64,000 nt of DNA. Origin: Leucoraja erinacea (lineage: Eukaryota). Position numbers and translations under genes: made by a program. How positions within the stretch are numbered: position 1 is the stretch's first letter; every line of letters begins with the position of its first letter. This document shows positions 12,792 through 62,205 of the stretch, one piece after another. Under the pieces are notes generated by a model. That model ran no database searches. It was not told where the DNA came from and saw only the letters and a list, made by a program, of their open reading frames with translations. Where the stretch lies: assembly GCF_028641065.1 (NCBI RefSeq), contig NC_073393.1:35216001-35280000 (forward strand), in the 5' to 3' direction.

Positions 12792-14004
12792 TAGAGTACA
12801 ATTATTTATTTTATAAGGCAGGGCTGCCAACATTGGGTGAGAGTTGGGAGTGATAAATTGCGAGAGACCAAGCCCGAGGGAGCATAGCACTCGGGGGGAG
12901 GAGGAGGGGGGGGGGGGGAGAGGAGGAAGGTGTCCCCCTCCCATTGGTATGGAACATTTGCATTTTTCAGCTTGAAATTGTACAATATGGTGCATACTAT
13001 AGCGACTCTTTTAACTTACACTTGAATGCAATATATATGCTTTAAATTGGATTGGAGCGTTTTTGAAAGGGGGAGGCTGTGCGATCACTGATCACTGGCC
13101 TTGGGGGTACCCGGTGAGGGAGTGGAGCAACCGAGTGGGGAGAGGGTGTGGAAGAAGGGTGTCCCCCCTCCCAGGGGAGGAACCTTTTGAAATTTGATGT
13201 ATTAAAATCATGTTGTACTGCACTGTAGAAATATGATTTCAATGTTTTTTGTATGAAGTATTTTTAAGAGGTAACTTTTTAAGGGGTAACTTTATCCACA
13301 CAAAGATGGAACAAGCTGCCAGAGGAGGTAGTTGAGGCAGGGACCATCCCACCATTTAAGAAAAAGTTAGACTGATACATGGATAGGACAGGTTTGGAGG
13401 AATGGACCAAAAGCGGGTGGCGTAGCTGGGACATGTTGGCGGGTGTGGGCAAGTTGCACCGAAGGGCCTGTTTTCACACTGTATCACCCTATGACTACAT
13501 TATGCCTCCACCATGCCTCAAAATCAAGTGATCGAGTTTTATTGATATATACTCAAGCATAGAAACATAGAAAATAGGTGCAGGAATAGGCCATCGGCCC
13601 TTCGAGCCAGCACTGCCATTCAATATGATCATGGCTATTCATCTAAAATCAGTACCTCTTTCCTGTTTTTTCCCCATATCCCTTGATGTCGTTAGCCCCA
13701 AGAATTAAATGTAACTCTCTCTTGAAAACATCCAGTGAATTGGCCTGCACTACCTTCTGTGGCAGAGAATTCCACAGACTCACAACTCTCTGTGTGAAGA
13801 AAGTTTGTCCTCATCTCAGTCCTAACTGGCCTCCCCTTTATTCTTAAACTGTGACCCCTGGTTCTGAACGCCCCCAACATCGGGAACATTTTTCCTGCAG
13901 TTACAGTAAGTGAAAATCTAGCAGGCAAGCAGGATGCTTTCTCCAACCACCCCCATTTGAAGTCCACTATCTTCCACCGTTTCTACCCAGTGCTTGGTAC
14001 TTAC

Positions 14005-14160
14005 TTCCAGCAGCCACCGGTTGTCCTCCAGGATGCACCGAGCCGCAGCCTGATCCATGCCGGTCACCTGGGCGAATTCGTCACAGAGATTCTCACGGCA
14101 GCGGCACAACGCTACCGATGCCTCCGATGGCCCGGGACTCTTGCACTGAGGCTGCTCCAT
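14005..14160 (-). pseudogene. TDP2: Orphan TDP2-like first coding exon (UBA-like N-terminus)
   Basis: ATG at 14160. The 52 codons end RENLCDEFAQVTGMDQAAARCILEDNRWLLE, followed by a phase-0 GTAAGT donor. This resembles the recalled vertebrate TDP2 segment RRLLCVEFASVASCDAAVAQCFLAENDWEME. No exon 2 was found. Confidence 0.72.
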
Positions 14161-14398
14161 GGCCGGAGCTGCAGTGAGCGACTCGCCAGCCCAGCAAACA
14201 CTCGCCAGCCCCGCTCCCCGTCCGCATCTGTCCCCGCTGCTGCTTCCAACACCCGCGGCCCATGCAGTTGATATGAGTTTAGAAATTTTCGTTGATCACA
14301 GAATTTCTCACAACAGAGCGAGAGAAATTTGTGATCAGCGTGAGAATTTGGTGAAATGCGTGATTCTCACGCTCAATGCATGGGAGTTGGCAGCCCTG

Positions 14399-14421
14399 CC
14401 TCTCTATCCCCCTCTCCCTCT

Positions 14422-14467
<46 letters not shown>

Positions 14468-15215
14468 CCATCTTTCCACTCTCTCCCCTCTCTTTCCCCT
14501 AACTCTCTCTCCCCCTCTCTTTCCCCTACCTCTCTCTCCCCCTTTTTCTTCTCTCTCTCCCCTCTCTTTCTCCTNNNNNNNNNNNNNNNNNNNNNNNNNN
14601 NNNNNNNNNNNNNNNNNNNNNNNNNNNNNNNNNNNNNNNNNNNNNNNNNNNNNNNNNNNNNNNNNNNNNNNNNNNNNNNNNNNNNNNNNNNNNNNNNNNN
14701 NNNTCTCCACACACTCTCCCTCTCATCTCTCTCCTCCTCTCTCTCCCCCATTTCTCCCTCCCACCTCACTCACCTCCTCCCCCTGTCTCTCTCCCCTCTC
14801 TCTCTTTCTCCTCTGTCTCTATCTCCTCTTACTCTTTGCCCCCCCCCCCCCCCCCCCCCATCTCTCTCTCTCTTTTCCCCTCTCCCCCTCTCTCTTTTAC
14901 ACCCCTCTCTCTTCCCCCTTTTCTCTCTTCTGTCCCTCTCCTCCCTCTCCACCCCCTCTCTCTTCCCTCTTTCTTCCCTCCCTCTCACCCCTCTCTCTCT
15001 TTCCCCCCCCCTCCCCCCACCCCTCCCCCCCCCTCCTCTCTCCCCCCCCCTCTCTCTCTCTCCCTCCCCCATCTCTCTCCCCTTCCTCGCTCTCTCCCTC
15101 TGTCTCTCTCCTCTCCTCTCACCCCCCTCTCCCCCTCTCCCCCCCTCTCTCTCCCCCCCCCCTCTCTCTCTCCCCCCCCACAGTCTCCCTGTCTCCTTCC
15201 CCTCTCTACCTCCCT
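14399..15215. repeat. CT-rich low-complexity tract containing an assembly gap (N 14575-14703)
   Basis: Almost pure C/T sequence flanks the N run. Confidence 0.95.
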
Positions 15216-15230
15216 TTGAGAGTCTGTCCC

Positions 15231-15312
15231 TTCGGCACAGAGACTCTCGCGGCAGCGGCACCTCCAATGCCCCCGACGGCCCGGGACACTCACGCTGTCC
15301 GGAGTGCTCCAT
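15231..15312 (-). pseudogene. Second, truncated and frameshifted copy of the TDP2-like exon
   Basis: MEHSGQRECPGPS.../RCRCRESLCAE. 15231-15440 aligns with 14075-14275, and both are followed by the same terminal sequence. Confidence 0.65.
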
Positions 15313-18049
15313 GGTCGAAGCTGCAGCGAGCGACTCACTAGCACCGCAAACACTCGCCAGTCCCGGCTCCCCACATCTGCTCCCACCGCTGGTTCTGCTC
15401 CCATCCCCCCCGCAGCCCCGGCTCTCTAACACCCGCGGACAGTGTTGTTGATCACAAACTCTCTCACCACTGAGCGTGAGAAATTTCTGATCAGCGTGAG
15501 ACCGTGAGAGTTTGCTTGAGGGCGTGAGTCTCACACTCAAAGAATGAGAGTTGGCAGCCCTGTAAAAGGTCATAGGGTTATGTGATTGGAGCAGAATTAG
15601 GCCAATTGGCCCATCAAGTCTACTTTTGTATGCAATTCAGAAAAGTTATTATTTATAGGCACTACCATACCCAAGTACAACAAGTTGCAACTAATGTAGT
15701 GTAAAAATAGAGTATATTGAGGCAGTACACATAGAATCGCTACACATCTGCCACCATCTTGTATCGTAGAAGATTCAAGGTTTTTAAAAGTATAGTCTTA
15801 TCTATGCCTCAAAGGCCAGTTGTCCTGTTGGAGGCACCGGACCAGAGTTGCAGGGGTTGGCCTGGCCTAATGATGCTGTCAATGCCTCCACCGCTGCTGT
15901 GTGTCGCTGCAGGCCACATCCGATCCACACATTCAGCCTCTGAGGGGCTTCATGCGGCACCCAATACACATGACCCTCCTCACCTGCTGCAGGGCCTCCG
16001 TCGACATGCAGGACTATCGACATATAGAACTAAATAGTCCTGTTCAGATCTGCTGATGCAAAGCAGAATGAGGAAACCAACTGTTAAGAAAAAAAATCGT
16101 CTTTTGTGTTACAGGTCCGATTGAGTGCGAGATCATTCTAAAATAACGAAGGAACTGTCGCTGCACTTCATTCTGGTGCCTCCTGCACACTGGTCCTCTC
16201 CCTCCTACTTCTGTGCCACTTCTTCAAGGTAGGTTATCCTGTTATATAATATTCACAAACACTGCATCATGTCTGTATGCTTCCCAGGGTGGAAATATCA
16301 AATACTAGACTGCCTAGATTTACGGTGAGAGGAGGAAAGTTTTGAGGAATTGTGCGGAGTAAGTTTTTCACCGAGGGTGGCAGGTGCCAGGAAAGTGCTG
16401 CCGCTGGTGGTGGTGAAAGTAGATAGGCACATGGACATGCAGGGAGCGAAGGGATATGGATCATGTACAGGTCGATAAGATTAGTTTATCACAGCATCAT
16501 GTTCGGTAGAGACCATGGGCCAACGGGCCTGCTCCTGTGATGTTTTATGTTCTTCAGTATGTTCTATGGTCTATATGTTCTATAGAACCATGTTCTATGC
16601 TCTATAATCTCTGTGACTACTTGTTAGATTGAGAGAGTATATGTACCATCTGAAATATGGTATTGAGTGCTTATTGCAGCAATGTTACAAAATTTTGAGA
16701 TTTAAAAAATCAAGTCTGCAATTTATCCCATCAGATAAAGCATAAAAAGAAGTTTAATTTGACACCTAATTCACTTTCATATCTCAAGTAATAAAAAAGT
16801 TATGGCCATTTTCATACTCGGAAATTAGCATCTTGTTCCCTATTGATTTTCTATGGACATAACAAAAAAGCTGTGATCGAGGACAGTCAAAAGCCCATAA
16901 CCTTCTTAAAAATTAAGGGGATGAGTGACAAAGATTCCATTCTGAAACAAATATAAAATAATCTTACTTGGAGGACCTGAAATTAAAGCATATAATTAGT
17001 TAGTTACCCAATTGTAGCTAATTTCAAACTTCAATTACTAGATTTAAACATCTATCCATTTCTTAATAAATGATTAACATTTTTAAATAGCCTGTGTCCA
17101 AATAATATTCACAATATAATTCACAATAAAACATTATTTTAAAATCTCATTTACACAATTTATAGGCCAACAAATTTAGACAATTGGTAAATTAAAGTCA
17201 ATTTAAATCAGCTTTCTAGTGGGTCATGTGAAGCGCTGGTTTAGAACATTTTTTTTCGCTGGATTTGTGCCCTCAAATGCCCAGAGTGGGGATATGACAG
17301 AAAAATGGTCTATGCTATAGATAAACTTTATATACAGGGTTCTGTAAGAAGCCCCTTTTAATGTACAAAAAGGTACATACCTTTAATTGTTGCTTTATAT
17401 TGGGGCTGCGAAGGTCAGGTTGAGAGAGTATTTTAGTTAAAATTATACAAGGCGTAAAAACTAATCATCAAATTTGCGACGGGGTCTTCCAGCTTTTTCC
17501 ATTAATGTTTACTGGGCTGAACATTTTCGATTGCGCCTAGTAAAAATCGCGTTTTATACCCGCCCCCTCTAAACAGCCAACCGAATCGCGCACACTGACC
17601 ATTGATCATCTACACGATTCAGTTAGGTTTTTATCCCACACAGGGCAATTTACAAAATATTGCCAATTAATCTACAAAAATATGCAGGTCTCCGGACAAT
17701 ATTAGGGGATTGTTTTTGGTCAATTGCAAACCCGCAAAACCTTGTTATTGATTGTGGGGAGGAAACCAGAGCACCCGTTTGAGAAAGAATAAAAACCCAC
17801 GTGGCTTGTACTTCAATAGAACGTTCAAATTGTCCTTGGAAATGTTTACTGTTTTTCACCTTAATATTTCCATTGTGTTCTCCTTCACACTTGTAGGACA
17901 GGTCGAAGTGGTTCCAATTCGGGTGCTGTGAGGCCAGCAGCTCTACGACTCTTCTGTGGAGTGGGGAATTGACAGTGGTATCATAATAGCTTCAGACTGT
18001 AATACTAAGTTGAAGTATCATGAGAATCAAATATTTTGTTAAATTCATG

Positions 18050-21678: not shown

Positions 21679-23716
21679 CAATGCATTCAGAAAGTATTCA
21701 GACCCTTCACTTTTTCCACATTTTGTTACAGCCTTATTTTAAAATGGATTCAATTCTTTTTTTTTTATCATCAATCTACACTCAATACCCCAGAATAAAG
21801 AAGCGAAAACAGGTGTTTCGAAATTTTTGCAAAGTAATTAAAAATAAATAACTCAAATATCACATTTACATAAGTATTATGACACTCAAAATTGAGCTTG
21901 GGTTCATCCTGTTTCCATTGATTATCCTTGAGATGTTTCTACATCTTGATTGGAGTCCACCAGTGGTAAATTAAAGTGATTGGACGTGATTTGGAAACCT
22001 TGTATACAAAGAAATACACACCTGTCTATATAAGGTCCCACAGTTGATAGTGCATGTCAGAGCAAAAACCAAGCCATGAAGCCGAAGCAATTGTTCGTAG
22101 ACCTCCAAGACAGGATTGTGTCGAGACACAGATCTGGGGAAGGGTATAAAACAATTTCTTCAGCATTTGCAGGTCCCGAAGAGCACAGTGGCCTCCGTCA
22201 TTCTTAAATGGAAGAACTTTGGAACCACCAGGACTCTTCATAGAGCAGGTCGCCCGGCCAAACTGAGCAATCGGGGGAGAAGGGCACTGGTCAGGGAGGT
22301 GACCAAGAACCCGATGGTCACTCTGACAGAGCTCTAGAGTTCCTCCGTGGAGATGGGAGAACCTTCCAGAAGAACAACTATATCTGCAGCACTCCACCAA
22401 TCAGGCCTTTATGGTAGAGTGGCCAGACGCAAGAGCGAAACTCGCTATCAACACATGGAGGGGACGGGGGACACAATTTGTTGGCGGCCACGCGCGCATG
22501 CGCGCACACTCACACACACGCGAGGCTTCGGAGGCTCAATCCAGCGCTAAATGCAGCTCAACTCTGCCTGTCTCGCCGGGTTAACTGCAGCCCTGCCTGG
22601 ACTGACGGGACACCAGCGCTGCTTCTCCGCGCTGGCCATATTTCCCGCATGTCCAGGAAGGTTGTAGGCTCACCTGGCGGGACAAGCAGAGTTAGCTGGG
22701 TTTAGCGCTGTTTCTCTGCACTGGCCGTCTGATTCCCGACCAAAGATCCTATAGTGGAGGATCTTTGCTGCCGACCTCTCTGGCCAGGAGTGGGAGGGGG
22801 GGGGTACTCGGGTACTCAGGAGGGGACGGGACAGCGCCGGATACTCGGCCAGGATCAATCCTGGCTGCGGATGAGGCACAGGTCTGTGCCACGTCTCCTT
22901 CCTCCAAAAACCGCACTCTATCCTCAATCCCACACCCCCCCCCTCACTCCTCCCTCCCCCAATCATCGCGCTGAATTATGTTCCGCCCCCATTGTCCGAC
23001 GTCTCTCTCGTCCAATCAGCACCCTTGATCATCAATCCCACCCCCACTGTCTCGCGGAAAGTGGAGATTTCACCGGGTTTTAAAATCCGGATTACAAAAA
23101 CTTGGGGGATATGTCCCCCACCTCTCAAAACATGGAGGGGACGTGTCCCCTCTAGCCCCCCCGGGTTTTCCGCCCCAGGCCACTCCTCAGTTCCAGAGCA
23201 TTCTGGACCTCAGACTGGGGTGGTGGTTCACCTTCCAACAGGACAAGACCAAGACAACGCAGGAGTGGCTTTGTGACAAGACTGTGAATGTCCTTTCATG
23301 GCCCAGCCCGGATTTGAACCCGATCGAACACCTCTGGAGGGACCTGAAAATAGCTGTGCATCGACGCTCCCCATCCAATCTGACAGAGCTTGAGAGGATC
23401 TGCAGAGAAGAATGGGAGAAATTACCCAAATACAGGTGTGCCAAGCTTGTAGCATCATACCCAAGAAGACTTGAGGCTGTAATCGCTGCCAAAGGTGCCT
23501 CAACAATGTACTGAGTAAAGGGTCTGAATACTTATGTAAATGTGATATTTCAGTTATTTCTTTTAAATTACTTTGCAAAAATTTCTAAACGCCTGTTTTT
23601 GCTTTTTTATTATGGGGTATTGTGTGTAGATTGATGATTTTTAAAAAAAGAATTTAAACCATTTTAGAATATGGCTGTAACGTAACAAAATGTGGAAAAA
23701 GTTTCTGAATGCACTG
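21679..23716 (+). mobile_element. Tc1-family DNA transposon (IR/DR type), internally deleted
   Basis: About 200-bp TIRs: CAATGCATTCAGAAAG... / ...TTTCTGAATGCACTG|TA, with AAGTATTCAGACC repeats. Transposase remnants from ATG 22076: GRPAKLSNRGRRALVREVTKNP, LHQSGLYGRVARRK, FQQD, WPSPDLNPIEHLW, ending at TGA 23514. Confidence 0.95.
22430..23178 (+). mobile_element. Non-autonomous hAT-type element nested in the Tc1 transposase
   Basis: Termini CAAGAGCGAAA / TTTCCGCCCCAG. Homologous along its length to 60891-61664. Interrupts the ARRKPLL codons. Confidence 0.85.
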
Positions 23717-56911: not shown

Positions 56912-59900
56912 GTATAGAAACATAGAAAATAGGTGCAGGAGTAGGCTATTCAGCCCTTCGAGCCTGCACCGCCATTCAATATGATCATGGCTGATCATCC
57001 AACTCAGTATCCTGTACCTGCCTTCTCTCCATACCCCCTGATCCACTTAGCCACAAGGGCCACATCTAACTCCCTCTTAAATATAGCCAATGAACTGGCC
57101 TCAACTACATACTGTGGCAGAGAATTCCAGAGATTCACCACTCTCTGTGTGAAAAATATTTTCCTCATCTCGGTCCTAAAGGATTTCCCCCTTATCCTTA
57201 AACTGTGACCCCTTGTTCTGGACTTCCCCAACATCGGGAACAATCTTCCTGCATCTAGCCTGTCCAACCCCTTAAGAATTTTGTAAGTTTCTATAAGATC
57301 CCCCATCAATCTTCTAAATTCTAGCGAGTATAAACCGAGTCTATCCAGTCTTTCTTCATATGAAAGTCCTGACATCCCAGGAATCAGTCTGGTGAACCTT
57401 CTCTGTACTCCCTCTATGGCAAGAATGTCCTTCCTCAGATTAGGAGACCAAAATTGTAAGCAATACTCCAGGTGTGGTCTCAGCAGGACCCTGTACAACT
57501 GCAGTAGAACCTCCATGCTCCTATACTCAAATCCTTTTGCTATGAATGCTAACATACCATTCGCCTTCTTCACTGCCTGCCGCACCTGCATGTCTACTTT
57601 TAATGAATGGTGTACCATGACACCCAGATCTCTTTGCATCTCCCCCTTTCCTAATCGGCCACCATTCAGATAATAGTCTACTTTCCTGTTTTTGCCACCA
57701 AAGTGGATAACCTCACATTTATCCACATTATACTGCATCTGCCATGCATTTGCCCACTCACCCAGCCTATCCAAGTCACCTTGCAGCCTCCTAGCATCCT
57801 CCTCACAGCTAACACTGCCCCCCAGCTTTGTGTCATCCGCAAACTTGGAGATGTTGCATTCAATTCCCTCGTCCAAATCATTAATATATATCGTAAATAG
57901 CTGGTGTCCCAGCACTGAACCTTGCGGTACCCCACTAGTCACTGCCTGCCATTCTGAAAAGGACCCGTTTACTCCTACTCTTTGCTTCCTGTCTGCCAGC
58001 CAATTCTCTATCCACATCAATGCTGAACACCCAATACCGTGTGCTTTAAGTTTGTATACTAATCTCTTATGTGGAACCTTGTCGAAAGCCTTTTGAAAGT
58101 CCAGATATAACACATCCACCGGTTCTCCCTTATCCACAGTTACATCCTCGAAGAATTCTATAAGATTCGTCAGATATGATTTACCTTTCATAAATCCATG
58201 CTGACTTTGTCCAATAATTTCACCACTTTCCAAATGTGCTGCTATCCCATCTTTAATAACTGATTCTAGCAGTTTCCCCACTACCGATGTTAGACTAACT
58301 GGTCTGTAATTCCCCGTTTTCTCTCTCCCTCTCTTTTTTAAAAAGTGGGGTTACATTAGCTACCCTCCAATCCTCAGGAACTACTCCAGAATCTAAAGAG
58401 TTTTGAAAAATTATCACTAATGCATCCACTATTTCTGGGGCTACTTCCTTAAGTACTCTGGGATGCAGCCTATCTGGCCCTAGGGATTTATCGGCCTTTA
58501 ATCCATTCAATTTACCTAACACCACTTCCCGGCTAACCTGGATTTCACTCAGTTCCTCCATCTCATTTTACCCCTGGTCCCCTGCTATTTCCGGCAGATT
58601 ATTTATGTCTTCCTTAGTGAGGACAGAACCAAAGTAGTTATTCAATTGGTCTGCCATGTCCTTGTTCCCCATGATCAATTCACCTGTTCCTGACAGCAAG
58701 ACTACATTTGTTTTAACTAATCTTTTTCTCTTCACATATCTATAAAATCTTTGCAGTCAGTTTTTATGTTCCCTGCAAGTTTTCTTTCATAATCTATTTT
58801 CCCTTTCCTAATTAAGCCTTTTGTCCTCCTCTGCTGGACTCTGAATTTCTCCCAGTTCTCTGGTAGGCTGCTTTTTCTGGCTAATTTGAACGCTTCATCT
58901 TTTGTTTTGATGCTATCCCTGATTTCCCTTGTTATCCACGGATGCACTACCTTCGCTGATTTATTTTTTTGCCAAACTGGGATGAACAATTGTTGTAGTT
59001 CATCCATGCAGTCTTTAAATGTCTTCCATTGCATATCCACCGTCAACCCATTAAGAATCAATTGCCAGTCTATCTTGGCCAATTCACGTCTCATACATTC
59101 AAAGTTACCTTTCTTTAAGTTCAGGACCCTTGTTTCTGAATTAACAATGTCACTCTCCATCCTAATGAAGAACTCAACCATATTATGGTCACTCTTGCCC
59201 AAGGGGCCACGCACAACAAGACTGCTAACTAACCCTTCCTCATTACTCAATACCCAATCTAGAATAGCCTGCTCTCTCGTTGGTTCATCTACATGTTGGT
59301 TTAGAAAACTATCCCGCATACATTCCAAGAAATCCTCTTCCTCAGCACCCTTGCAAATTTGATTCACCCAATGTATATGTAGATTGAAGTCACCCATTAT
59401 AACTATTTTACCTTTGTTGCACGCATTTGTAATTTCCTGTTTGATGCCATCCCCAACTCCACTGCTACTGTTAGGTGGCCTGTACACAACTCCCACTGAC
59501 GTTTTCTGCCCCTTAGTGTTTTGCAGCTCTACCCATATCGATTCCACAGCCTCCAAGCTAATGTCCTTCCTTTCTATTGCGTTAATCTGCTCTCTAACCA
59601 GCAACGCTACCCCACCTCCTTTCCCTTTCTGTCTATCCCTCCTGAATATTGAATATCCCTGGATGTTCAGCTCCCAGCCTTGGTCACCTTGGAGCCATGT
59701 CTCCGTGATCCCAACTATATCATAGTCATTAATAGCTATCTGCACATTCAACCCATCCACCTTATAACGAATGCTCCTTGCATTGAGACACAAAGCCTTC
59801 AGGCTTGTTTTTACAACACTCTTACCTCTTATACAATTATGTTGAAAAGTGGCCCTTTTTGATTTTTGCCCTGGTTTTGTCTGCCTGCCACTTTTACTTT

Positions 59901-60238
59901 TCACATTGCTACCTATTGCTCTACCCTCATTTTACACCCCTCTGTCTCTCCGCTCACACCTTTACGAAACCCTTTCCCTTTAACACCATCCTCAACTATC
60001 CCATTTGACACCCCACCCCCCTTATTCAGTTTAAAACCACCCGTGTAGCAGTGGCAATCCTGCCTGCCAGAATGCTGGTCCCCCACCTGTTAAGATGCAA
60101 TCTGTCCCTTTTGTAGAGTTCCCCCTTACTCCAAAACAGATCCCAGTGATCTAAGAATCTAAATCCCTGCCCTATGCACCAGTTCCTCAGCCACACATTC
60201 AGGTCCCGTATCTCCCTGTTCCTGCTCTCGTCAGCACG
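56912..60238 (-). mobile_element. Near full-length CR1 LINE: ORF1 esterase C-terminus plus frameshifted ORF2 (APE endonuclease and RT)
   Basis: ORF1 60026-60292 (FLDHWDLFW...LYKRDRLHLN). EN 58732-59904 (NARS, GITETW, YRPP, GDFN, SDH). RT 57004-58281 (QHGF, YLDFQKAFDKVPH, GVPQGSVLG, FADD). (CTATGTTT)n tail. Confidence 0.97.
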
Positions 60239-60890
60239 GACCAGGCCCTTTGGCCCACCGAGTCCGCACCGACCAAGGATCCCTGCACACATTTACACTA
60301 TCCTACACACACCAGGGACAATTTGCACACACACCAAGCCAATTAGTCTACAAACCTGTACATCTTTGAAGTGTGGGAGGAAACCGAAGATCTCGAAGAA
60401 AAGTCACGTGGTCATGGGGAGAACGTACAGACAACGTACAGACAGCACCCATGGTCGGGATCGCACCCAGGCAACCGGCACTGCAAGCGCTGTAAAGCAG
60501 CAACTGTACCGCTGTGCCGCCCAATTTCCATCATCATTTTGGTAAATGTACTATCCCTGTGTAGATAATAACTGTTGTTTTTGGTTGGTGGATGTTCCCA
60601 ATCAAAAATTACTGGGTAAATGAGGACTGCCTTTTGATCTTGAATTTTTTTAAACTTATTCTTCTTTTCAGTTTGTGGTTCTGGTTGGTTAGATATATTG
60701 CCCATCCCTAATTGCGAGTGAAGGTGACGGTGATGCATTTTCATGACCTGCTGCTGTCCTTTAGGTGAAGATGCGCTCATGAAGCTGTTGGATAGGGAGT
60801 TTGCGGATTTAAACTCGGGTCCACTGAAAGGTGAAAAAGGCAGAAATAATTACGTCAGGATAGAAAGAATCTTGGAGCGGACGTTCCATG

Positions 60891-60964
60891 CAAGAGCGGA
60901 ACTCGCTATCAAAACATGGAGGGGACCGGGGGACACAATTTTGTATGGCGGCCACGTGCGCATG

Positions 60965-61013
<49 letters not shown>

Positions 61014-61664
61014 GCACACACACACACACACACACACACGCGCGCGCGTGCGGCTTCGGAGGCTCAATCCAGCGCTAAATGCAGCTCAACTCTGCCTGTC
61101 TCACCGGGTTAGCTACAGCCCTGTCTGGACACCAGTGCTGCTTCTCCGCGCTGGCCTAATTTCCCGCAAGTCCAGGGAAGGCTGTAGGTTCACCTGGCGG
61201 GACAGGCAGAGTTGAGCTGGGTTTAGCGCTGCTTCTCTGCGTTGGCTGTGGGCCTGGGGGCACCGCTCGCGTCTGACTCCTGACCTCTCTGGCCACCCGT
61301 GGGGGGGGGGGGCACTCGGGACAGCGCCGGAGAGCCGGCCAGAGCGGATGAGGTGCAGGTCTGTGCCACGACTCCCTCCTCCAATCACCGCACTCTATCC
61401 TCAGTCCCACCACCCCAACTTCCGCCTCCCCATTCCTCCCTCCTCCAATCATCGCGCTGAATCATCATGTTCCGCCCCCATTGCCTGCTGACCGATGTCT
61501 CCCTCGATCATCGGTCCCACCCCCCACTGTCTCGCAGAAAGCGGAGATTTCATCGGGTTTTAAAAGCCGGATCGCAAAAACTTGTGGGGGATGTCCCCCA
61601 CCTCTCAAAACATGGGGGGGGGGGGGACATGTCCCCTCTGGCCCCCCCGGGTTTTCCGCCCCTG
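60891..61664 (+). mobile_element. Non-autonomous hAT-type element with perfect 8-bp TSD
   Basis: GTTCCATG at 60883-60890 and 61665-61672. Imperfect TIR CAAGAGCGGAAC / TTTCCGCCCCTG. Contains a (CA)n microsatellite at about 60971-61040. Confidence 0.9.
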
Positions 61665-61684
61665 GTTCCATGTCCCCACTGTCC

Positions 61685-62205
61685 TTTGGTTGAACACCTA
61701 TGCTCAGTCCGCCCAGGCCTACATGATTTCCGGGTTATTAAACACTTTAATTCCCCCTCCTATACTCATACTGACCTCTCCGTCCTGGGCCTCATCCACT
61801 GTCAGAGTGAGGCCCTACGCAAATTGGAGGAAGAACACCTCATATTTTGCTTGGGCAGCTTACAACCTAGCGGTATGAATATTGATTTCTCTAACTTCAA
61901 GTAACCTTTGCTTTCCCTCTCTCTCTGTCCCTCCCCCATCTTAGTTTCACTGTCCTCTTGATTAAATATTACTGATTGTGTGCCACGTTGCCACCTTTCC
62001 CTCAGCTAACAATGCACCATTCTACATTTCCTAGATTATCGTCCCCTTTGATCTGTGTTTTCACTCCGTACCCTTGTATTTCTCTATGTCCCTCTCCCCT
62101 AACTCTCAGTCGGAAGAAGAGTCTCGTCCTTAAACATTACCCATTCCATCGCTCTGGAGATGCTGCCTGTCCCGCCGAGTTACTTCAGCATTTTGTGTCT
62201 ATCAT
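61685..62205 (+). mobile_element. Penelope-like element 3' fragment
   Basis: EHLCSVR...KHFNSPS...RKLEEEHLIFCLGSLQPSGMNIDFSNFK (GIY-YIG end) and a tail with a degenerate hammerhead motif near 62110. Confidence 0.85.

Follow-up and report, generated by a model that had tools for sequence, protein, structure and literature searches.

How does the first exon of a host gene come to lie inside a transposable element, and does it do anything there? The question is raised by a 64,000-nucleotide stretch of the genome of the skate Leucoraja erinacea (NC_073393.1, positions 35,216,001 to 35,280,000; here called the window, on contig C17). At 12819-15562 a first-pass annotation had recognised a Pack-type DNA transposon with a first exon resembling that of tyrosyl-DNA phosphodiesterase 2 (TDP2). 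Our analysis makes it very probable that this element is a high-copy, non-autonomous cut-and-paste transposon with DNA from the TDP2 5′ end, likely as unselected cargo. The cargo consists of about 1 kb of the TDP2 5′ end, intron included, within a non-autonomous terminal inverted repeat (TIR) element.

Translation confirmed a 52-codon exon (14160-14005, minus strand) with a phase-0 GTAAGT donor. The resemblance of its peptide to the UBA-like N-terminus of TDP2 was borne out by a Pfam UBA_4 match above the cut-off (E 1.9e-5), by a match to the TDP2 UBA chain of PDB 6q00 (E 7.8e-4) and by alignment to the full-length L. erinacea TDP2 (41/54 residues identical, 76%). The exon had been thought to stop where vertebrate TDP2 exon 1 stops, and its 3′ limit coincides exactly with the boundary between exons 1 and 2 of TDP2 in assembly G000. 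In this parent gene exon 1 lies at C2:37570402-37570241, exon 2 is identical to the protein, and the rest of the protein maps to a single location in the assembly (C2:37548389-37564754). Window positions 13282-14256 are collinear with the parent from intron 1 through exon 1 to the leader (79% across 1038 columns); the window donor at 14004-13999 (minus strand) reads GTAAGT and the parental donor GTAGGT. The intron piece (13282..14004) has two SINE-like (short interspersed nuclear element) fragments in common with the parent. Retention of the intron together with these fragments indicates capture from DNA, as originally argued, and a processed TDP2 retrocopy was rejected because exon 1 runs into intron 1. 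The similarity to the parent stops at the breakpoints, and the nearest TIR-like motif in the gene is 4 kb off, in intron 1.

Exon similarity alone would also be expected of a genuine TDP2 locus, a paralogue, a retrocopy or a segmental duplication that happened to have a TIR beside it. Such a reading is hardly conceivable: TDP2 exons 2-7 occur once, on C2, with none near the window; the intron is kept; and hundreds of dispersed copies have their own target-site duplications (TSDs). As the remainder of TDP2 is single-copy on C2 and the window lies on C17, the window is not the gene.

The window copy combines an outer element, X, with remnants of an inner element, Y, and of a second gene, CDADC1. 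Its features are as follows.

12812..12818, plus strand: left 7-bp target-site duplication, matching 15563-15569 in 6/7 bases
12819..13053, plus strand: left end of outer element X, 13-bp TIR (12819-12831) and subterminal sequence; inner boundary approximate
13054..13281, plus strand: inner element Y, one-end remnant, terminal bases gone; 77.5% to the free Y copy L097 over 13055-13269
13282..14004, minus strand: captured TDP2 intron 1, first ~720 nt, aligning to G000:C2:37569498 onward
14005..14160, minus strand: captured TDP2 exon 1, coding part, 52 open codons, of which the last 30 form the UBA-like domain
14161..14256, minus strand: captured TDP2 leader with an internal deletion, without the upstream in-frame ATG of older copies
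14253..14264, plus strand: TIR of inner element Y; the same 12 bases terminate free Y copies
14266..14297, minus strand: remnant of captured CDADC1 upstream DNA; 27/32 columns match G000:C13 near 33506450
14298..14398, plus strand: internal X right end with subterminal repeats, TIR at 14386-14398
14399..15230, plus strand: CT-rich low-complexity tract, borne by the element (14575-14703 are N) and found in other copies too
15231..15440, minus strand: second, partial and more diverged TDP2 exon 1 copy (5′ part) with leader
15441..15562, plus strand: X outer right end, TIR at 15550-15562, the end used in transposition
15563..15569, plus strand: right target-site duplication

The 13-bp TIR is exact at 12819-12831 (inverted), 14386-14398 and 15550-15562. 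The repeat noticed beside the exon proved to be an internal third copy, the outer right end lying at 15550-15562. Three matches per 64 kb at up to two mismatches are not above chance (19/100 shuffles); all three TIRs of the window match exactly, and other copies have them at corresponding positions; in copies with both right ends the TSDs pair with the outer one and not with the internal one.

High copy number next to the TIR with distinct TSDs was upheld. A first look with the exon region gave 3770 candidates, and the 40 that were scored were 94-100% identical. A 26-nt donor junction had 828 exact matches, one of them the parent and 827 non-parental, and its reversed control had none. Exact matches numbered 1049 for the X left end, 1995 for the X right end and 222 for the internal right end (reversed controls 0). 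At a divergence of ~4-5% per copy, 828 exact 26-mers would correspond to an estimated ~2000-3500 copies. The X right end was no more than 3 kb away at 56/60 donor-picked loci, and one intron breakpoint recurred among the 60 copies mapped. Among 64 two-ended X elements, exact TSDs were of 7 bp in 23, 6 bp in 15, 8 bp in three and shorter in three, with none in 20; the 41 duplications of 6-8 bp were all different. Lengths of 6, 7 and 8 bp are an unusually mixed spectrum for one family. At least half of the sampled query words, from a query that includes SINE DNA, were found in 14 sequencing runs from seven organisms. Both the exon and the X right end are covered by read contigs from organisms G and H, and the exon-intron junction by contigs from organism C, so the family occurs in several species.

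The 13-bp-TIR element had been taken as the captor of the exon, a role that its inner partner now appears to fill. Family Y is a TIR element with a 5-bp TSD that carries the TDP2 piece and also occurs free. A Y marker had 58 exact matches; at the 30 loci read no X end was found, 11 had TDP2 intron from -805 to -822 (about -818), and four of the seven two-ended Y copies had an exact 5-bp TSD. The TDP2 piece of free Y (leader, exon 1 and ~820 nt of intron 1) is longer than that borne by X, and the free copy L097 (1538 bp, 5-bp TSD) is parent-like at two indels, which holds for none of the remaining 89 among the 90 donor-picked copies. X was thus likely the second carrier.

Older X copies, which have a parent-like donor, contain a further segment next to their right end. 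Its profile matched CDADC1 of Rhinoraja longicauda (E 1.3e-10; 1 of 4561 candidates), and the segment itself matches DNA upstream of CDADC1 (85-91% over 64-68 nt) as well as the 5′ part of exon 1. An origin as a transposase or small nuclear RNA 5′ end was rejected, the segment being CDADC1 exon 1; Rfam gave only sub-threshold repeat matches. In long X copies the AT-rich left part matches the 3′ part of CDADC1 exon 1 and intron 1 (80%, 87%), and family X carries upstream DNA, exon 1 and intron 1 of this gene. TDP2 sits between the two CDADC1 exon halves, bracketed by inverted Y ends; the two Y-CDADC1 junctions were found at 23 and 10 loci, and both in L335. Interruption of the CDADC1 exon at one fixed site in older X copies makes a single entry of Y likely.

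CDADC1 exon 1 of G000 (C13:33510506-33510601) has no adjoining X TIR and lacks six codons that are common to the element copies and the R. longicauda protein, so capture likely predates the deletion. The uninterrupted exon was found in 40 non-parental copies. Among 15 such loci that were read, none had TDP2, two had an X end (L358, L363) and 13 belonged to a third family, Z (L359, L361, L362, L364-L373). Family Z elements are up to ~1 kb long and carry CDADC1 upstream DNA and the whole of exon 1 with its donor, together with another, GC-rich segment and a piece similar to the subterminal region of X. Their ends look TA-flanked by eye (majority line, copies L359 and L365), and the comparison with Tc1/mariner, on TA flanks and a short TIR, is likewise by eye only.

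Older X copies also contain the whole 84-codon TDP2 exon from an upstream ATG, as in the A. radiata annotation. This ATG is in frame in the older element copies and in the A. radiata protein; in the G000 gene it lies at 37570497, 95 nt from the annotated ATG (37570402) and out of frame, which is a lineage-specific frameshift or an assembly error. The CpG-rich upstream region described for the window element is present, and consists of ~100 nt of TDP2 leader rather than a full promoter; older copies and the A. radiata annotation have this stretch as coding sequence.

The window copy itself lacks the CDADC1 exon, the CDADC1 intron and the tip of one Y end; what is left beside its internal X end is a 12-base piece of the other Y end and ~30 bases from upstream of CDADC1. 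Its second exon copy is 73% identical to the first and 72% to parental TDP2 over 15231-15399. To judge by this layout, the window copy is a deletion derivative carrying a second partial exon. The exon is interrupted at either of two fixed positions in 31 of the 90 donor-picked copies, usually by the CT tract, with the 5′ part further on. The window-type order of whole exon, internal X end, CT tract and then exon 5′ part suggests a joining of whole-exon and CT-split forms.

These structures are consistent with a model whose simplest order is that Y takes TDP2, X takes CDADC1, Y enters X and X amplifies. Y would have taken its TDP2 piece through template switching or gap repair, and X would have acquired the CDADC1 upstream DNA, exon 1 and intron 1 that it holds. 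Y with TDP2 would then have entered one X copy, likely once, and X spread the composite with distinct 6-8-bp TSDs, probably by a hAT-type transposase supplied in trans. Internal deletions may have removed most of CDADC1 and the Y ends, and in one lineage the CT tract would have split the exon; recombination or bypass of an end likely gave the double-right-end form seen in the window. After insertion, copies would have been methylated and left to drift. In a tree of the shared intron-exon piece, simple copies with the parental donor lie nearest the parent, on longer branches.

In kind, the X and Y elements are Pack-TIRs: host sequence is enclosed by two TIR-element ends, the parents have been located (TDP2 on C2, CDADC1 on C13) and are not flanked by the element, copies are numerous with distinct TSDs, and there is no transposase open reading frame (ORF). 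The earlier statement that the element encodes no transposase holds among the ORFs of the window (14575-14703 of the element being N). None was found in six frames of the long copy L115 or downstream of module M2 (see below) at 21 loci, and 11 long or widely spaced X elements had only nested retroelement ORFs among those listed. A search confined to X ends found them at 0/30 hAT-dimer loci, out of 150 listed, within +/-1.5 kb, and at 0/20 within 10 kb. Helitrons have neither TIRs nor TSDs, and a Helitron was rejected because both are present. MULE-type elements are described with long TIRs and 9-10-bp TSDs (PMC8277862); the skate TIR is 13 bp and no TSD exceeds 8 bp. The canonical 8-bp hAT duplication was seen in 3/64 X and 0/7 Y elements. 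TSDs of 5, 6 or 7 bp with short TIRs, as in hAT5, hAT6 and hAT7 (PMC12730594), are found in both families: the 5-bp TSD of Y fits hAT5 and the 6-7-bp TSDs of X fit hAT6/hAT7, making hAT a candidate superfamily. In contrast to the groups in the accessible part of that work, X mixes 6-, 7- and 8-bp TSDs, and hAT7 there is fungal. [quoted passage not shown]

Whether the captured exon is at work was assessed in 90 copies chosen by an intact donor motif for frame and indel counts. The exon was whole in 52 (17 open, 35 broken) and cut in 38. One frameshifting 1-bp deletion is common to 21/53 rows, which indicates that a broken template was amplified. Distinct non-CpG changes were synonymous in 33/141 cases against an expected 0.22 (p 0.68), and a family-wide test found no purifying selection on the frame. 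CpG transitions relative to background were alike in exon (4.6x), leader (4.8x) and intron (4.1x; p 0.85, 42 copies), as expected for methylated DNA; persisting CpG islands were rejected, CpG decay matching that of the intron. Copies that decay like unselected DNA suggest a passenger rather than a working gene start, and on these sequence comparisons the captured exon is probably passenger DNA.

The first-pass annotation had proposed a portable first exon, and in one form of this idea a few of the copies are transcribed and spliced at the captured donor, add a UBA-like N-terminus to neighbouring exons and are kept by selection. ATG, frame and donor are kept in the 17 open copies, which would correspond to ~150 intact among exact-donor copies; the 84-codon frame and GT are kept in 6/25 older copies; and the CpG observed/expected ratio of the window exon is still 0.80. 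In the part of the animal Pack-TIR survey available, at least 30% of the Pack-TIRs examined form chimeric transcripts (PMC8277862). Against this, distinct changes are neutral and CpG decay is full. A weak search for longer proteins gave nine candidates, namely TDP2 and one unspliced read-through with no chimera, and no host-gene domain was found in the 150 ORFs covered out of 219 non-repeat ORFs of the window. In five presumed-RNA runs (X15-X19, of which X16 is probably DNA), read contigs cross the donor unspliced with no loose end at 14005, in one query that showed the best of >550 loose ends; the parental exon 1-2 junction was also unseen in these runs. We consider the idea improbable, and as a family-wide role it is unsupported, with 17/90 copies open and a frameshifted form amplified.

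Several points weigh against passenger DNA and the history proposed for it. The copy samples come mainly from contig C1 and were chosen by exact motifs, and no transposase is linked to X or Y in the loci examined. No intact 5-bp TSD surrounds Y within CDADC1, so entry may have been by repair or recombination rather than transposition, and the tree places the parent-donor copies only weakly. Counted copy by copy, there is a synonymous excess (ratio 0.75, p 0.038 at non-CpG sites; 0.63, p 3e-6 at all sites), which we read as inherited changes counted repeatedly together with CpG bias, a reading made without a tree-based model. Non-CpG divergence is lower in the exon (0.046) than in the intron (0.059, badly aligned rows included), and the donor has changed to the stronger-looking GTAAGT in 77/90 copies. 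An exapted minority among the copies is possible, and the family averages are compatible with it.

The cargo might instead serve the element, if GC-rich 5′ ends raise germ-line accessibility or transcription so that carriers out-transpose empty elements. The two cargoes identified so far are both first exons and occur in three families, and sister X elements hold further exon-like GC-rich modules; in the part of the bat study at hand, Helitrons with promoters or first exons reached higher copy numbers (PMC4224331). The CpGs of the skate copies decay at the methylated rate, however, exon-split and frameshifted forms amplified well, short X elements without TDP2 are common, and biased capture near open promoters would give the same pattern without benefit. 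A benefit to the element seems decidedly improbable, and passenger DNA is the reading that we carry forward.

A sister X lineage without TDP2 holds up to three stacked modules, each a segment plus right end (L231:3232-6099, L190, L197, L207, L229 and L168, on G000 C1). Two modules have an ATG followed by a donor-like site, the third is CpG-rich, and all face inward like the TDP2 exon; marker counts were 142 and 222. Protein, atlas, pattern and DNA searches found no parent for module M1. Its match 26 kb from TDP2 was rejected as parent, being another element copy, and the match of M2 near CDADC1 is a SINE. Upstream of TDP2 exon 1, at a distance of 26 kb, there is an old X copy of the sister lineage (C2:37596406-37601890), and an element with a related TIR lies inside TDP2 intron 1 (G000:C2:37565513); at this copy density both may be there by chance. 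The boldest view is of a skate TIR relay that harvests first exons (TDP2, CDADC1 and up to three more exon-like modules), passes them between unrelated families and scatters thousands of ATG-plus-donor cassettes, with some of the ~150 or more intact TDP2 copies adding a ubiquitin-binding module to other proteins. We regard it as unlikely.

The portion of the animal survey available reports 370 Pack-TIRs in 100 genomes, four of them multicopy (Tan et al. 2021, PMC8277862), so that the statement that exon capture by TIR elements is rarely described in vertebrates holds for multicopy cases and not otherwise. The skate elements resemble these Pack-TIRs in being non-autonomous TIR elements with an unlinked parent, distinct TSDs and, as in the multicopy cases, GC-rich cargo. 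The multicopy examples there include Pack-hAT-N8_XT, with the CAPSL 5′ UTR (untranslated region) in frog, a worked example with three copies and Ssk-FB4 with four (PMC8277862). The skate differs in its >800 exact matches, its nested two-gene cargo and the presence of the same cargo in more than one TIR family; its copy number exceeds that of the vertebrate multicopy example, which has three copies, by a factor of hundreds. As far as the bat study could be consulted, the precedent closest in scale is found among HelibatN3 and related Helitrons, a bat Helitron having carried the first exon of NUBPL to a thousand copies (Thomas et al. 2014, PMC4224331); it lessens the novelty of a high-copy first exon in a vertebrate. 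Bat Helitrons are rolling-circle elements, whereas the skate elements have TIRs and TSDs. Plant Pack-MULEs and Pack-CACTAs carry multi-gene cargo, and a single TIR element holding pieces of more than one gene is a trait shared with the skate, which differs in its 13-bp TIR, 5-8-bp TSDs and vertebrate host. The literature searched held no published account of these skate families, which may already be named in Repbase or Dfam. Taken together, these comparisons describe a high-copy vertebrate Pack-TIR whose cargo comes from two genes and went from one family to another, its contents probably passenger DNA.

In the surveyed animals, on the part of the survey available, Pack-TIRs are almost always single-copy (PMC8277862), and the skate presents plant-style Pack elements at high copy. 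The intermediates are still in the genome (free Y, X with an intact CDADC1 exon, the nested form and deletion forms) and both parents have been located, so one genome family offers a direct test of the capture mechanism, of the bias to 5′ ends of genes and of what becomes of first exons once dispersed. Older states of host exons survive in the copies too, namely the longer TDP2 frame and the six CDADC1 codons missing from G000. With exon 1 of TDP2 and of CDADC1 present in hundreds of copies, annotation, read mapping and probe design in skates can go astray.

Elsewhere in the window, an exon-like stretch at 16114-16229 (plus strand), from pyrimidine-rich acceptor to donor, lies ~550 nt to the right of the element. 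Two related GC-rich repeat copies at 22690-23150 and 60890-61690 have minus-strand donor-like sites, and their subterminal motifs, made of G/C runs, resemble those of family Y; they are possibly another Pack-type family. A further GC-rich stretch lies at 900-2300, Tc1-type transposase remnants at 22034-22334, and long minus-strand ORFs, which we take to be LINE-like (long interspersed nuclear element), at 57007-59931.

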